13,730 nt of DNA from a virus: the UHGV virus genome UHGV-0087644. One strand, 5' to 3'. This document shows, in pieces, positions 3,698 through 11,571 of the stretch. A model generated the notes under the pieces. That model was not told the DNA's origin. It saw nothing but the letters and a program-made list of their open reading frames with translations, and did no database searches. The first letter of the stretch is position 1. Every line of letters begins with the position of its first letter. Both the position numbers and the translations under genes were made by a program.

Positions 3698-3813
3698 AAT
3701 AAGACCTCAACTCTTTTCCATCCGTCACGTAATTTACGGGTGATTCGTTCAAGTAAAGATTCATTTAGTTGGAAGGCACCCATGCGAGCGCCTCCCGCGA
3801 TTGCGTAAATCAT
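3682..3813 (-). CDS. cIII: CIII, FtsH/HflB protease inhibitor
   Basis: 43-aa ORF not in track; contains ESLLERITRKLRDGWKR, matching the conserved lambda CIII core; ATG at 3813 preceded by SD AAGGAA. Confidence 0.8.
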   Translation of the reverse strand: MIYAIAGGARMGAFQLNESLLERITRKLRDGWKRVEVLLCAMK

Positions 3814-3837: not shown

Positions 3838-4806
3838 TTAGTAGGTTATTTTTGTTGCGAATACTTCGCCTTTTACGATGGCTGTTATGATATTTTTAGC
3901 AACATCTTCTGATGCGCCAACCTTGATAAGGTCAGCAAGTATTTTGTTATTTACTTCTTTCCGGTGAGCTTTATCCTTTGCTCTACGCTCTTCTTCGTCC
4001 TTGATTCTTTTTCCTTCTGCTATTCTGGCTTGCTCTTTTGCTTCAGCCTCGCGCCGGATTCGTTCAGCCTCCTCCTGTGCTTTTCGGCGTTCTGCTTCAA
4101 TTGCCGCCTGCTTTTCTCTTTCAGCTCGTTCTGCTGCCTCTTTTGCTTCGCGCTGTGCTCGTTGCTCGGCTTCAATGCGTTCACGCTCTGCACGTTCCGC
4201 TGCGGCCTTAGCTTCTGCTTCTCGCCTTGCTGCTGCTTCAATTTCGGCTTTTGCCTTTGCTTCGGCTTCTGCTCTGGCTTTCTCTTCAGCTTCTCTTTTT
4301 AAGCGTTCTTCATACTCTCGCTTTTCCTGCTCCGCTTTGAGTCTTGCCTCTTCTCTTTGGCGGTCAAATTCGCGATCCATCAAAATAGCTATTTCATGGT
4401 CAGACTCAATTTGCTTTGCGAGAGCTTCAGCTGCTGCCTTAGCTTCTTCTTCGGCTTTAATCCGTGCCTGTTCCTCCTCATAATCAGTAAGAGGCTGGCG
4501 CGCCTTGGCTTTCAGTTCATCAAGGCGATCGCGCACTGTCTTGCGGTTGGCATCAATTAGCTTTGGAATTTCCTTCAGTTCAGCAACAAGGTCTTTGCCA
4601 AGACCATCGAGATATGTTTTCGTCTGCGCAACTTTATACGCCAGAGAAGCGATCTCCTTTCTGCCCTTTGCCGTTGTGATATCAGGCACAAAGGACATAA
4701 CTTCACGTTCAACCCTTTGAAGGATTTCTTCAATCTGGTCGGCAGACTGAAATACAGTCATTGCATTTGCTTTTTCAATAACAACTAAATCTGTTACTTC
4801 ACTCAT
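3838..4806 (-). CDS. coiled-coil protein with long E/R/K/A-rich helical segment, function unknown
   Basis: 322-aa track ORF; ATG 4806 with SD GGAGG; folded-looking N-terminal about 110 aa, then about 160 aa of charged low-complexity helix (EAEAKAKAEIEAAARREAEAKAAAERAERE...), then short C-terminal domain ending KITY. Confidence 0.7.
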   Translation of the reverse strand: MSEVTDLVVIEKANAMTVFQSADQIEEILQRVEREVMSFVPDITTAKGRKEIASLAYKVAQTKTYLDGLGKDLVAELKEIPKLIDANRKTVRDRLDELKAKARQPLTDYEEEQARIKAEEEAKAAAEALAKQIESDHEIAILMDREFDRQREEARLKAEQEKREYEERLKREAEEKARAEAEAKAKAEIEAAARREAEAKAAAERAERERIEAEQRAQREAKEAAERAEREKQAAIEAERRKAQEEAERIRREAEAKEQARIAEGKRIKDEEERRAKDKAHRKEVNNKILADLIKVGASEDVAKNIITAIVKGEVFATKITY

Positions 4807-6897: not shown

Positions 6898-7242
6898 CTA
6901 TGACCATTTTTTATTTGGATTTCGTTGGTGAGCGTGATTAACAACTCTGTGCATTACATCCTCATATTTTTCATCTTCAATTTTTTCGACATCGCGAGGA
7001 AATGGTGTTGCTAATGCTTTGTCAACTTTGTCCATTGGTTCTTCATTAATCTTATATTCAGGACCGTCATCTATAGCATTAAATCCAGGTGTTACACCGT
7101 TTTTTAATGCATATGCTATCCTTTTTTCCCATCTCGCTATTCTCCTCCTGTCTCGAGATGTAAGACCTCTATCAGATACTTTTCTGTTTTGTCCGCGGTC
7201 AGGATTAACATAAATAGTCTTTTTCACCATAAGCATACTCAA
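6898..7242 (-). CDS. hypothetical protein with arginine-rich N-terminal region (114 aa)
   Basis: Track ORF; start overlaps N stop (ATGA); SRDRRRIARWEKRIAYALKNG is basic; followed directly by a terminator. Confidence 0.5.
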   Translation of the reverse strand: MSMLMVKKTIYVNPDRGQNRKVSDRGLTSRDRRRIARWEKRIAYALKNGVTPGFNAIDDGPEYKINEEPMDKVDKALATPFPRDVEKIEDEKYEDVMHRVVNHAHQRNPNKKWS

Positions 7243-7544
7243 TAAGCACCGTACGGTAGTTTACTGTACAATTTTATTTTTTGGACTGCATGTATTTTGT
7301 TTCCTAACGGGTTTGAATCTTTGTAATAAATACTTCTATTTTTTCGAACGACTTCTTCTTTCTTCTTGCAGCAAAGGCTTCCTAGTGATGCTGCTTTGTC
7401 TGCTCTGACGCAACCAGAGAGCTTTAGCGCAATTTTTCGCGCCAGTGCTTCATTACTGCGTCGCTCGGCAATAAGTTCTGCTCTGCGAGCTTTGTAGCGG
7501 CTTTTTGCCGTACCTTTGGATTCTTTCCAGACAATGGTTACCAT
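7239..7544 (-). CDS. N: N-like transcription antitermination protein (phi21-type arginine-rich motif)
   Basis: Track ORF 7239-7574 trimmed to ATG 7544 (SD AGGAG); N-terminus MVTIVWKESKGTAKSRYKARRAELIAERR matches the phi21 N arginine-rich RNA-binding peptide as I recall it; nutL lies upstream. Confidence 0.75.
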   Translation of the reverse strand: MVTIVWKESKGTAKSRYKARRAELIAERRSNEALARKIALKLSGCVRADKAASLGSLCCKKKEEVVRKNRSIYYKDSNPLGNKIHAVQKIKLYSKLPYGAY

Positions 7545-7654
7545 AATGGTCTCCTTTAAGTGGCTTTGGCGCATGACGCGTCGAGGTGCTTATCTTCTCG
7601 ATCGCTGTCTTGCAGCTGCAATTCGCGCCATCCCCAAAACCACTCAAGTTCTGG

Positions 7655-7695
7655 TCTCAACGGTTAGGTTGAGAGTCCGCCGATGTTAAAGAGCC
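7655..7695 (-). promoter_or_regulatory. nutL: boxA plus boxB hairpin
   Basis: Minus-strand reading: boxA GCTCTTTAACA (plus 7684-7695), 9-nt spacer, boxB with 7-bp stem TCTCAAC/GTTGAGA and loop CUAACC (plus 7655-7674). Between the predicted pL and N. Confidence 0.6.
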
Positions 7696-7740
7696 TGCCA
7701 ATCTGTTCCGTTTGGCTTCCAGCGTCCTGCTGATGGCTTA

Positions 7741-7770
7741 AATTTAAGACTTCTTAATTTATTGGTCAAG
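7741..7770 (-). promoter_or_regulatory. pL promoter candidate with overlapping oL operator
   Basis: Minus strand: -35 TTGACC (plus 7764-7769), about 17-bp spacer, weak -10 TAAATT; perfect palindrome TTAAGACTTCTTAA at 7744-7757 overlaps the spacer/-10. Confidence 0.4.
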
Positions 7771-7834
7771 TGCATTTTTGAAGAAAACTTAATTTTATGG
7801 GCGTGAATTTAGTTTGTCTTTGATTTTTAACGGG

Positions 7835-7860
7835 AAATAAAAAAGGGGCGAAAGCCCCTT
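7835..7860 (-). terminator. rho-independent terminator for the cI transcript
   Basis: Stem AAGGGGC/GCCCCTT (7843-7849 / 7854-7860) with GAAA loop, followed on the minus strand by UUUUAUUU; overlaps the cI stop codon. Confidence 0.55.
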
Positions 7861-8509
7861 AAGGAAGGTTTGCTAGCTTGGCATCAACGACAACGCCAAT
7901 GATTTTACAGTTCCCATTGATTTCAATCATTGGGTATTGTGGATTGAGTGGTTTCAGGAATTTTCTACCGGCATCAATAACTAACTTTTTGAATGTCGCC
8001 TCGTTTTCCCCTTCAAGTTTGGCGACTACCAGCTTTCCATTACGTGGTTCGACTTCTGGGTCGACGAGAATAATCATCCCCTCAGGAATACTCAGTCCTG
8101 CCGGGGCAGTCATTGAATCGCCTTTAACGTCGAGCCAAAAAGAGTCTTCAGAACAATCTACCGTTGTGTCGTACCAGTTATCTATTGCACGCCTATGATA
8201 TGGCTCTACAGCTTCCATCCAACATCCTGCGCTTACCCAACTAATTAGAGGATACGAACCTCTTGGATCATGCCTGCTGTGATAGGCAATGTTTGAAAGA
8301 CTATCCTCTCCTTTCAACAGGTAATCAGGGGAGCACTGCAAAGCCTTGGCTAAGGCCAATAGGTTTTCGCCATTGGGCTCAGTTTCAGATCGCTCCCATT
8401 GGGAAATAGCAACATTAGACACGCCAACCATCTTGCCAAGGGCAGCCTGCCTAATCTTGAGTTCTTTTCTGCGAGCGCGAATACGCTCACCCATCAGTTG
8501 TGTATTCAT
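7859..8509 (-). CDS. cI: CI-type prophage repressor (HTH + S24 LexA-like peptidase domain)
   Basis: 216-aa track ORF; N-terminal HTH (QAALGKMVGVSNVAISQWER); C-terminal FWLDVKGDSMTAPAGLSIPEGMIILVDP...ATFKKL...FLKPLNPQYPMIE closely parallels the lambda CI C-terminal domain. Confidence 0.9.
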   Translation of the reverse strand: MNTQLMGERIRARRKELKIRQAALGKMVGVSNVAISQWERSETEPNGENLLALAKALQCSPDYLLKGEDSLSNIAYHSRHDPRGSYPLISWVSAGCWMEAVEPYHRRAIDNWYDTTVDCSEDSFWLDVKGDSMTAPAGLSIPEGMIILVDPEVEPRNGKLVVAKLEGENEATFKKLVIDAGRKFLKPLNPQYPMIEINGNCKIIGVVVDAKLANLP

Positions 8510-8589
8510 AGTTAAGACATCTTAAATAAACTTGACTTAAGATTCCTTTGGTGGATAATTTAAGTGTTCTTTAACTTCGGAGCGAGTCT
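8510..8589. promoter_or_regulatory. oR operator region with divergent pR / pRM promoters
   Basis: Palindrome TTAAGACATCTTAA (8512-8525); pR -35 TTGACT (8532-8537) and -10 GATAAT (8554-8559); degenerate operator-like TTAAGTGTTCTTTAA (about 8559-8574); SD GGAG before cro ATG 8590. Confidence 0.65.
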
Positions 8590-8775
8590 ATGTACAAAAA
8601 AGATGTTATTGACCACTTCGGAACCCAGCGTGCTGTTGCTAAAGCACTAGGCATTAGCGATGCAGCAGTCTCTCAGTGGAAAGAAGTTATCCCAGAGAAA
8701 GACGCCTATCGATTGGAAATCGTTACAGCTGGCGCCCTGAAGTATCAAGAAAGTGCTTACCGCCAAGCGGCATAA
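8590..8775 (+). CDS. cro: Cro-like repressor (YdaS/Cro HTH family)
   Basis: 61-aa track ORF immediately downstream of pR, divergent from cI; HTH region GTQRAVAKALGISDAAVSQW. Confidence 0.75.
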   Translation: MYKKDVIDHFGTQRAVAKALGISDAAVSQWKEVIPEKDAYRLEIVTAGALKYQESAYRQAA

Positions 8776-8781
8776 GCAAAT

Positions 8782-8822
8782 TGCTCTTTAACAGTTCTGG
8801 CCTTTCACCTCTAACCGGGTGA
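8782..8822 (+). promoter_or_regulatory. nutR: boxA plus boxB hairpin
   Basis: boxA TGCTCTTTAACA (8782-8793), 11-nt spacer, boxB stem UCACCU/GGGUGA (one G-U pair) with loop CUAACC (8805-8822), the same loop as nutL. Confidence 0.6.
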
Positions 8823-8890: not shown

Positions 8891-9187
8891 ATGGCACAAG
8901 CAAGCTACAGCAAGCCAACACAGCGAGAAATTGATCGCGCTGAAACTGATTTACTCATCAACCTGTCAACGCTTACCCAGCGCGGTCTGGCAAAGATGAT
9001 TGGCTGTCATGAATCGAAGATAAGCAGAACGGACTGGCGGTTTATTGCTTCGGTCCTGTGTGCTTTCGGAATGGCATCAGACATCAGTCCGATTAGCAGG
9101 GCTTTTAAGTATGCGCTTGATGAAATCACAAAGAAAAAATCCCCGGCCGCCACCGAGGATTTTAAGCAAATTGATATGCAATTCTGA
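8891..9187 (+). CDS. cII: CII transcriptional activator
   Basis: 98-aa track ORF; ...LAKMIGCHESKISRTDWRFI... and C-terminal KKKSPAATEDFKQIDMQF parallel lambda CII (HTH and C-terminal tail). Confidence 0.85.
   Translation: MAQASYSKPTQREIDRAETDLLINLSTLTQRGLAKMIGCHESKISRTDWRFIASVLCAFGMASDISPISRAFKYALDEITKKKSPAATEDFKQIDMQF
8900..8913 (-). promoter_or_regulatory. candidate CII-binding site (TTGC-N6-TTGC) of a pRE-like leftward promoter
   Basis: Plus strand GCAAGCTACAGCAA, i.e. TTGC-N6-TTGC on the minus strand, inside the first codons of cII, where lambda pRE lies. Confidence 0.4.
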
Positions 9188-9219: not shown

Positions 9220-9381
9220 ATGACAAAACGTCGTAAGAAATACCAGGAAAAAGAAGAGATTCGACACCCTGATTCACCTGAGGGATTAGTGGTAGCCGCA
9301 GCAAATAACAGGGCGTTCGCAGAGCGCCTTGTTGGTGTTTACAGACTAGCCAAAGCAGGAGTGAAACATGGGCGTCGTTAA
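9220..9381 (+). CDS. possible small basic protein (53 aa) between cII and O
   Basis: Not in track; ATG 9220 preceded by AGGAG; [53 protein letters not shown]; 3' end overlaps the O start by 14 nt. Confidence 0.3.
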   Translation: MTKRRKKYQEKEEIRHPDSPEGLVVAAANNRAFAERLVGVYRLAKAGVKHGRR

Positions 9382-10198
9382 GTTAGCTGATTACAGGCCT
9401 CAACTGGAGGTCGTGGAGCATCGCGTGGCAGAACTCGAAGATGGCTACACTCGGACTGCAAACACACTGTTAGAAGCCGCCATGCTTTCTGGACTTACTC
9501 TACATCAGTTACTGATTGTTATGGCTGTGTGGCGCAAGACATACGGTTACAACAAAAAAATAGATTGGATCGGAAACGAACAGTTCGCTGAACTCACTGG
9601 CATGGCACCAACCAAATGCTCTACCGCCAAAAACGAGCTTATCAGAATGGGAGTTCTCATTCAGGTTGGGCGTCAAGTTGGTATGAATACAAACATTTCC
9701 GAGTGGAAAACGAAAGTTAACGGATTCGGTAAAACATTTACCAATTCGGTAAAACAAACCTTCACCAAATCGGTAAAAAGCAATTTACCGAATCAGTCAA
9801 ACACAAAAGACAATATACAAAAGACAATAAATACAAATACCCCCTTACCCCCTAACGGGGATGGCGATGGGCAGGTTAAACCTGAACGTCGCAAGGCAGA
9901 ACGAATCGACTACGAATCCTTCCTGAACGCCTACAACACCGAAGTCGGTGACAGACTTCCACACGCTGTTGCGGTCAACGAGAAACGAAAACGCCGCCTG
10001 AAGAAAATCATCCCGCAACTGAAAACGCCAAACGTGGACGGTTTCAGGGCGTATGTCAGGGCTTTTGTGCATCAGGCCAAGCCGTTTTACTTCGGAGACA
10101 ACGACACGGGCTGGACGGCTGATTTTGATTACCTGCTTAGGGAAGACTCGTTAACGGGAGTTCGGGAAGGGAAGTTTGCAGACAGGGGGATTGCATGA
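9368..10198 (+). CDS. O: replication initiation protein O homolog
   Basis: 276-aa track ORF after cII; SD AGGAG; iterons and an A/T-rich stretch inside the coding region; stop overlaps helicase start (ATGA). Confidence 0.75.
9724..9840. repeat. origin of replication: iterons plus A/T-rich region inside the O gene
   Basis: Direct repeats ATTCGGTAAAAC (9724-9735, 9744-9755), ATCGGTAAAAAG (9768-9779), inverted copy TTTACCGAAT (9784-9793), then A-rich 9801-9840. Confidence 0.6.
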
Positions 10199-11571
10199 AA
10201 CAGGATATCGAAGCGAGCGTTATCGGTGGCCTGCTGATTGGTGGATTAACACCAACCGCCAGCGACGTTCTGGCAACGCTGGATCCGGAAGCGTTTTCAA
10301 TTCCACTCTACCGGAAAGCCTTCGAGGTTATCCGCAAGCAGGCGAGAAACAGAAACCTAATCGATGCGCTGATGGTTGCCGAGGCGTGCGGAGAGGAGCA
10401 TTTCACGTCAATCCTGATGACCAGCAAAAACTGCCCGAGTGCCGCAAACCTGAAGGGATATGCCGGAATGGTCGCGGATAACTATCACCGCCGTCTGGTT
10501 CTGGAAATCATGGATGAAATGCGTGAACCAATTCAGAGCGGAACCATCGACGCATCGAGTCAGGCGATGGATGAGCTTGTAAAGCGTCTTTCAGCCATCA
10601 GAAAGCCCCGTGACGAGGTTAAACCTGTACGGTTAGGGGAAATCATCACTGACTACACTGACACGCTTGACAGGCGCCTGAGGAACGGAGAAGAGTCAGA
10701 TACCCTGAAGACCGGAATCGAAGAACTTGACGCCATCACCGGAGGGATGAACGCAGAAGACCTGGTGATAATCGCTGCTCGTCCTGGTATGGGGAAAACC
10801 GAGCTGGCGCTGAAGATTGCCGAAGGCGTTGCAAGCCGAGTTATTCCTGGTTCTGACGTCCGGCGCGGAGTGTTGATTTTCTCGATGGAAATGAGCGCAT
10901 TGCAGATTGCAGAGCGAAGCATTGCCAACGCCGGGAGGATGTCGGTTAGCGTGCTGCGAAATCCTGCATCGATGGATGACGAAGGCTGGGCGCGCGTTGC
11001 TAACGGCATGAGTCAGCTTGCAGATTTGGATGTATGGGTAGTCGATGCCTCGCGGTTATCGGTCGAAGAAATACGCTCAATCGCAGAACGGCACAAACAG
11101 GAAAATCCAAACCTGTCACTCATCATGGCGGATTATCTTGGCCTGATTGAGAAGCCGAAAGCAGACCGCAACGACCTCGCAATTGCTCACATCTCCGGAA
11201 GCCTGAAGGCGATGGCGAAAGACCTGAAAACGCCAGTTATCTCCCTGAGTCAGCTTTCGCGCGATGTTGAGAAGCGACCAAACAAACGTCCGACAAACGC
11301 AGATTTGCGTGATTCTGGAAGCATTGAGCAGGACGCAGACTCAATCATCATGCTCTATCGGGAAGCTGTATATGACGAGAACAGTAGCGCCGCGCCATTT
11401 GCTGAAATCATTGTGACGAAAAACCGTTTTGGCTCACTTGGTACGGTTTACCAGCGGTTCTGCAACGGACACTTTGTTGCATGTGACCAGGATGAAGCCA
11501 GACAGATTTGCACAGCATCAAATGCACCTGCTGCGCGTGGCAGACGATATGCACAAGGGGCTGACGTATGA
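10195..11571 (+). CDS. DnaB-family replicative DNA helicase (P22 gene 12-like)
   Basis: 458-aa track ORF; Walker [14 protein letters not shown]; DnaB-like N-terminal region and RecA-like C-terminal domain; coupled to O. Confidence 0.85.

Follow-up and report, generated by a model that had tools for sequence, protein, structure and literature searches.

Introduction

A phage repressor gene that is flanked on both sides by similar palindromes raises the question of what these palindromes are: binding sites of the repressor itself, sites of some other factor, or a by-product of promoter base composition. If they are operators, it must further be asked to which immunity group they belong and which stretch of each of them is the unit that is bound. 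In the viral DNA analysed here (the window, i.e. the whole stretch of 13,730 bp), an initial annotation had proposed CI/Cro operator palindromes of the form TTAAGA-N2-TCTTAA at both oL and oR, and had presumed that their shared half-site defines the immunity specificity of the CI/Cro pair.

The answer favoured here, with a probability of about 95%, is that the palindromes represent the operator cores of a lysis-lysogeny switch of the phage 21 type (imm21, similar to P22 immC) within a mosaic lambdoid prophage, a reading drawn from sequence relationships. The sites are present, occur far above chance, lie on candidate promoters, are conserved and coincide with the operators annotated in phage 21; their assignment as operators rests on near-identity to characterised phages. 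The operators are already known, being a near-exact copy of those of phage 21, and the immunity region is a classic one, which has been sequenced, footprinted, crystallised (as the P22 homologue) and annotated in GenBank. Binding of repressor and Cro to the P22 and 21 operators was reportedly published by Poteete et al. in 1980. The operator architecture was recognisable from the raw sequence alone.

Immunity region and prophage context

Between positions 7500 and 8900 the window shares 99.6% nucleotide identity with Escherichia phage 21, and this segment is the imm21 immunity region. By using megablast against phage records, full-length matches to the same segment with identities of 99.5%–99.8% were obtained for phage 21, lambda imm21 and lambda h434 imm21, as well as for the DE3 prophage, mEp235, HK629, Kapi1 and phiv205-1; DE3 is the prophage of BL21(DE3). 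A more sensitive search added the immC region of the Salmonella phage P22 (83.8% identity with window positions 7706-8793) and the coliphages N7 and CUS-3 (about 87% identity with positions 7700-8795). Among 5,426 complete E. coli genomes, 488 carry an imm21-type region.

Judged from its sequence, the whole window is a mosaic lambdoid prophage. The best coverage of its 13,730 bp by any phage record is at most 54%, and the gene content of the early region is typical of lambdoid phages, including the following features:

6898-7242, minus strand: Nun-like termination factor
7239-7574, minus strand: N-like antiterminator
7842-7860, minus strand: intrinsic terminator hairpin from a terminator scan, directly after the repressor stop codon and between the repressor gene and OL
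8891-9187: cII-like gene
9368-10198: O-like initiator
10195-11571: DnaB-like helicase

The mosaic around the immunity region differs from that of phage 21, as the window has the Nun-like gene after N, and its replication genes encode the O-like initiator and the DnaB-like helicase, whereas phage 21 has lambda-type O/P instead. A terminator is likewise annotated at the corresponding position of phage 21, and the GGGGCG..GCCCC stem of the hairpin is kept in P22, N7 and CUS-3.

Repressor and Cro

The two regulatory genes of the switch are arranged divergently, with the repressor gene next to OR and a P22-type cro on its other side:

7859-8509, minus strand: repressor gene (cI of phage 21 / c2 type), 216 aa, with an N-terminal helix-turn-helix and a LexA-like self-cleaving C-terminal domain
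8590-8775, plus strand: cro, 61 aa, identical to P22 Cro at 60 of 61 residues (98%; PDB 1RZS, E = 1e-35)

The repressor belongs to PHROG 4 (transcriptional repressor) and is identical to P22 c2 at 202 of 216 residues (94%). Within residues 1-68 only K16E and S54A distinguish the two proteins, and residues 17-53 are the same throughout. The helix-turn-helix QAALGKMVGVSNVAISQWER is that of P22 c2, including the recognition helix S31-N32-V33-A34-I35-S36-Q37-W38, and V33, Q37, E44, N46 and E48 are also identical. Among structures in the PDB, the repressor matches 1ADR, 2R1J and 3JXB/C/D, all of the P22 c2 N-terminal domain, together with lambda cI C-terminal domains.

Such similarity brings the published P22 work to bear on the window. 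P22 has six natural rotationally symmetric 18-bp sites with the consensus ATTTAAGATATCTTAAAT, in which each repressor monomer reads a TTAAG half-site through Val33 and Gln37 (PMC5175364), and the c2 DNA-binding domain has been crystallised on an operator of this sequence (PMC5175364; PMC4267663). Bases 2-7 and 12-17 of the 18-bp site are contacted, while the central bases 8-11 are uncontacted and read indirectly; OL1 is the tightest natural operator of P22 (PMC4267663). As for the primary description of the 21 and P22 operators, PMC1151598 cites Poteete et al. (1980).

Palindromes and 18-bp operators

The pattern TTAAGANNTCTTAA (TTAAGA-N2-TCTTAA) has exactly two copies in the 13,730 bp, TTAAGACTTCTTAA at 7744-7757 and TTAAGACATCTTAA at 8512-8525, and both perfect 14-bp palindromes proposed initially are therefore confirmed as the sole exact matches in the window. 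In 200 dinucleotide-preserving shuffles the exact pattern was found at a mean of 0.00 copies, with a largest count of 0. The degenerate copy that had been placed at about 8559-8574, at pR, is present at 8560-8574 as TTAAGTGTTCTTTAA; its proper register, however, is not this 15-mer but the 18-bp sequence ATTTAAGTGTTCTTTAAC. At the level of the half-site, 9 of the 33 TTAAG/CTTAA pentamers fall within the two control regions, which together span 171 bp, or 1.2% of the window.

The operators were mapped by transfer from the phage 21 GenBank record OL657228 (genome announcement: PMC9119081), in which three 18-bp CI operators are annotated on each side (OL1-3 and three OR sites); the window coordinate equals the coordinate of locus L001 plus 5999. 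Each site was scored with a half-site weight model built from the six P22 operators alone, which avoids the circularity of training on the window's own sites. The six sites, all annotated in OL657228, are:

7742-7759: OL1, ATTTAAGACTTCTTAATT, overlapping the PL -10 and spacer; score 18.3, second in the window
7777-7794: OL2, TTTGAAGAAAACTTAATT, upstream of the PL -35; score 14.1, fifth in the window
7806-7823: OL3, AATTTAGTTTGTCTTTGA; score 0.17
8510-8527: OR3, AGTTAAGACATCTTAAAT, abutting the repressor ATG and overlapping the PRM -10 and start; score 18.5, highest in the window
8535-8552: OR2, ACTTAAGATTCCTTTGGT, overlapping the PR -35 and spacer and the inferred PRM -35; score 14.9
8558-8575: OR1, ATTTAAGTGTTCTTTAAC, overlapping the last 2 bp of the PR -10 as well as the region in which transcription starts; score 15.5

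The perfect palindromes are contained in OL1 and OR3, respectively, in both cases as positions 3-16. Compared with phage 21, the six operators are identical bar one base, and the layout of PL, nutL, nutR, cII and pRE is the same; the exception is OR1 position 18 (8575), which is C in the window and T in phage 21. The sequence of OL1 is also that of P22 OL1, and OR1, OR2 and OR3 differ from their P22 counterparts by 1-2 bases each within the same promoter/operator geometry, although the DNA of the two regions is only about 84% identical. The claim of CI/Cro operator palindromes at both oL and oR thus holds, but OR2, OL2 and the weak OL3 had been missed, and the value for annotation lies in a corrected map of six 18-bp sites, five of them clear and the sixth, OL3, degenerate.

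The third left site deserves separate mention. Its half-site is TTTAG in the window and in phage 21 but TTAAG in P22, N7, CUS-3 and the Enterobacter and Pantoea phages, and OL3 is probably weak or non-functional in imm21-type phages. Of the three sites that OL657228 gives for either side, all are clear at OR and two are recognisable at OL. The centres of OL1 and OL2 are 35 bp apart, compared with 23 and 25 bp within OR, and OL and OR are separated by about 0.8 kb.

The five best matches to the P22-derived model in the window are, in descending order, OR3, OL1, OR1, OR2 and OL2, all of them in the control regions. Sites scoring at least 13 number five, against 0.2 expected and a maximum of 2 in 200 shuffles. 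Two further candidates for distal operators, at 3752-3769 and 4297-4314 inside early-left ORFs, scored 11.8-12.2; since the best score of a shuffle averaged 11.6, they were rejected as chance matches.

These counts bear on a different explanation, namely that the palindromes arose by chance in A+T-rich promoter DNA, or that they are bound by another factor, such as a host nucleoid protein, rather than by the prophage repressor. The intergenic promoter regions are indeed A+T-rich, and when the 14-mer was searched with up to 3 mismatches over the whole window, no enrichment was seen (8 matches against 7.6 expected). Against this stand the absence of exact matches in the shuffles, the concentration of five high-scoring sites at two divergent early promoters, and the annotation of operators in both phage 21 and P22. 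In addition, conservation of the operator block clearly exceeds that of the coding DNA on either side: when the window is aligned with phage 21, P22, N7 and CUS-3, the OR block reaches 97% column identity, compared with about 84%–87% for the wider region. Chance or an unrelated factor is accordingly a most improbable origin, and the reading as repressor operators is retained.

Two details of the phage 21 record were noted in passing. Its OR sites are labelled 'OR2, OR2, OR3', so that the site called OR3 here appears there as 'OR2', apparently a slip, and OR1 appears as 'OR3'. The record also starts the repressor CDS at Met27, a choice that would cost the protein part of its DNA-binding domain, for which the alignment with the solved P22 domain begins at residue 1.

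Promoters

The operators overlap three candidate promoters, called on consensus and homology evidence:

7741-7769, minus strand: PL candidate from a promoter scan; -35 TTGACC at 7769-7764, 17-nt spacer, -10 TAAATT at 7746-7741
8532-8559, plus strand: PR candidate from the scan (10 of 12 consensus matches); -35 TTGACT at 8532-8537, 16-nt spacer, -10 GATAAT at 8554-8559
8519-8547, minus strand: PRM, the repressor maintenance promoter, by P22 homology; -10 TAAGAT at 8524-8519, weak -35 AGGAAT at 8547-8542

For PL, the phage 21 record places the pL transcription start at L001 1735, i.e. window position 7734, and an early-left promoter is annotated at the homologous place in the P22virB-3 record. 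A promoter at the place homologous to the PR candidate is annotated in both mEp235 and P22virB-3. PRM was not detected by the consensus promoter scan; its position was carried over by alignment from the P22virB-3 features 'transcription of C2 gene in lysogen' and '5' nt of RM transcript', and its hexamers were read directly from the sequence. The RM transcript is predicted to start at about 8513, 4 nt ahead of the repressor ATG, as mapped from P22virB-3 (+7402).

In relation to these promoters, the palindrome at 7744-7757 overlaps the -10 and spacer of the PL candidate, and that at 8512-8525 is at a distance of 3 bp from the start codon of the repressor gene (ATG at 8509-8507, minus strand). 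The placement first proposed for the two perfect copies, overlapping the pL candidate and next to the cI start, agrees with the promoter scan and the gene coordinates. The degenerate copy begins 1 bp past the PR -10 hexamer, and its full 18-bp site, OR1, overlaps the hexamer by 2 bp.

Another element at PL is the 12-bp palindrome CTTAAATTTAAG at 7737-7748, which overlaps the perfect copy there and had been put forward as a possible additional site. It is a perfect palindrome of operator-like half-sites, it coincides with the -10 and start of PL, and it occurs again in phage 21, N7, CUS-3 and the Enterobacter phage. Nevertheless, palindromes of this kind are no rarity: the window holds five perfect ones of 12 bp where 3.2 are expected, and at least as many occur in 24% of shuffles. 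Its right arm amounts to no more than the left half of OL1, while its left arm is altered in P22 (CTAAAA) and in Pantoea PA-1 (ATTTAA). Moreover, its half-sites point outward and have no spacer, an arrangement that a dimer reading TTAAG-N8-CTTAA could not use. For CTTAAATTTAAG as an independent regulatory site at PL, the chances are therefore very slim, and its right arm is best regarded as part of the OL1 operator.

Conservation and the binding unit

The alignment of relatives is informative as to which positions matter. With the Enterobacter phage vB_Ecl_MII_001 and the Pantoea phage PA-1 added, column identity in the OR block falls to 94% and the TTAAG half-sites are retained. The changes in these more distant relatives lie mostly in the central four bases and at positions 2, 4, 15 and 17, which matches the contact map. 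Site by site, OR1 ATTTAAGTGTTCTTTA is invariant in seven relatives, OR2 is kept in all seven aligned relatives, and OL2 GAAGAAAACTTAA is unchanged in six of the seven, the exception being Pantoea PA-1. At OL the half-sites of OL1 and OL2 are largely invariant, with PA-1 departing in OL2.

These observations bear on the length of the operator. On a literal reading of the pattern first described, 14 bp would be the complete operator, with two half-sites of 6 bp (TTAAGA and TCTTAA) around a 2-bp spacer, and only the three listed copies would be functional. In both perfect copies the symmetry extends over exactly 14 bp around a non-symmetric 2-bp centre, as this reading demands. However, the near-identical P22 repressor defines an 18-bp site whose central four bases are uncontacted (PMC4267663; PMC5175364), and the inner A/T positions vary among relatives, with GACATC, GTCATC and GGCATC in one case and GACTTC, GATCTC and GTCTTC in another, whereas flanking position 1 and TTAAG are conserved. 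The 18-bp model also accommodates OR2 and OL2, two conserved sites with an annotation in phage 21 that are not among the three listed copies. A 14-bp operator is thus hardly credible. By analogy with P22, the functional unit is taken to be the 18-bp ATTTAAG-N4-CTTAAAT. The proposed half-site TTAAGA stands in its first five bases, TTAAG; its inner A/T belongs to the uncontacted four-base centre.

On its role, the proposal that the shared half-site sets the immunity specificity of the CI/Cro pair is supported, on sequence grounds, by the imm21 identity, the phage 21 annotation and the P22 c2-type DNA-binding domain. Since P22 and 21 share operators and DNA-binding domains, a single half-site sequence would act as the immunity determinant. 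The comparison with known immunity groups gives the same picture, as the sites match the phage 21 and P22 operators and are kept among relatives with the same or a closely related repressor.

The one base by which the operators depart from phage 21 is also the only base at which positions 7700-8600 differ from their best match among E. coli genomes. OR1 position 18 is C in the window and T in the five other relatives that align without gaps there. This position lies outside the contacted bases, and the 8575-C allele is rare and natural, with one MAG contig and two IMG/VR contigs carrying it. It may be speculated, as a rather unlikely proposition, that the decay of OL3 in the imm21 lineage (TTAAG to TTTAG), leaving a two-site OL, together with the rare T-to-C allele of OR1, might retune PL repression, or any long-range interaction between OL and OR, relative to P22. 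The reading of OL as a two-site operator may already be covered by the 1980 operator paper.

Proposed mechanism

The steps that follow are derived from P22 biochemistry. The 216-aa repressor would bind as a dimer to each partly symmetric 18-bp ATTTAAG-N4-CTTAAAT site, with the recognition helix of each monomer reading TTAAG in the major groove, while the untouched four central bases would tune the affinity through the shape of the minor groove. On the right side, repressor at OR1 and OR2 would block PR and thereby keep cro and the early-right genes off. Repressor bound at OR2 would also be placed to stimulate the weak PRM, which would yield more repressor, and the overlap of OR3 with PRM may provide both negative autoregulation and a target for Cro.

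On the left side, repressor at OL1, lying on the PL -10 and spacer, would shut off N and the early-left genes, with assistance from OL2. Cro would use the same sites to turn the switch in the opposite direction, and RecA-stimulated self-cleavage of the LexA-like C-terminal domain would lead to prophage induction.

Immunity and comparison with other systems

The assignment to the imm21 type predicts that the prophage would confer immunity to lambda imm21-type phages, and the LexA-like repressor predicts that it would be SOS-inducible. Cross-immunity with P22 immC-type phages is a further possibility. The 21 and P22 repressors probably recognise each other's operators; a literature search for an explicit statement of 21/P22 co-immunity found nothing usable. 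P22 has a second immunity region, immI (ant/mnt/arc), which falls outside the window.

In its overall plan the switch resembles that of lambda, in which both early promoters, pointing away from each other, have three dimer sites; the window has three clear sites at OR, and at OL two recognisable ones besides the degenerate OL3. As in lambda, cI and cro are transcribed in opposite directions on the two sides of OR, the repressor mRNA made from PRM is predicted to be almost leaderless, and the C-terminal domain of the repressor is LexA-like and cleavable. The window has only the terminator hairpin between the repressor gene and OL, whereas lambda carries rexA and rexB there. The sites themselves are also different: those of lambda are 17 bp long, with an axis through a base pair and an unrelated sequence, while those of the window are 18 bp long, with the axis between bases 9 and 10 (PMC6649833; PMC4267663).

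Left and right operators

The left operator OL3, one of six 18-bp repressor operators annotated in phage 21, lies at 7806-7823 in the window and is degenerate in the imm21 lineage, where the half-site reads AATTTAG, in contrast to ACTTAAG, AGTTAAG or AATTAAG in P22, N7, CUS-3 and the Enterobacter and Pantoea relatives. With the operator model derived from P22, the score of OL3 was approximately zero, and the window may have only two working sites at OL.

At the right operator OR1 (8558-8575), the window carries a C at 8575, whereas phage 21, P22, N7 and CUS-3 all have a T. Between 7700 and 8600 this is the sole base at which the window departs from the best-matching E. coli genome. It is position 18 of the operator, immediately beyond the bases contacted by the repressor, and is followed about 5 nt downstream by the Shine-Dalgarno sequence of cro. 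The C allele is rare but natural, being carried by one MAG contig and two IMG/VR contigs; the MAG contig, labelled Oxalobacter, is probably mis-binned phage DNA.

Operator-like 18-mers were also found inside the early-left ORFs:
3752-3769: AGTAAAGATTCATTTAGT
4297-4314: TTTTAAGCGTTCTTCATA
Their scores with the P22-derived model (11.8-12.2) were near the mean shuffle maximum, and both are therefore probably chance matches rather than operators.

Genes and sites flanking the operators

Further features of the window:
6898-7242, minus strand: Nun-like transcription termination (exclusion) factor (PHROG 5632, E = 9e-71)
7655-7674, 7687-7694, 8783-8790 and 8805-8822: boxB hairpins and boxA elements of nutL and nutR, phage 21-type
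9368-11571: replication module, O-like initiator and DnaB-like helicase (P22/HK97 type)

The nut elements are placed as annotated in phage 21, with boxB stems TCTCAAC...GTTGAGA and TCACC...GGTGA, so the N specificity is also 21-type. The N-like antiterminator gene (7239-7574) is followed directly downstream by the Nun-like gene, an order identical to that of mEp235, while phage 21 has ral in the latter's place. The replication module also departs from phage 21, which carries lambda-type O/P, and thus places the mosaic joint on the right-hand side of the imm21 segment.

In the GenBank record of phage 21 (OL657228; coordinates of its locus L001), the repressor CDS (1860-2432) begins at Met27, window position 8431, giving a protein of 190 aa whose HTH domain is cut into, and the three right operators (2511-2576) are named 'OR2, OR2, OR3'. 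Each of these appears to be an error of annotation.
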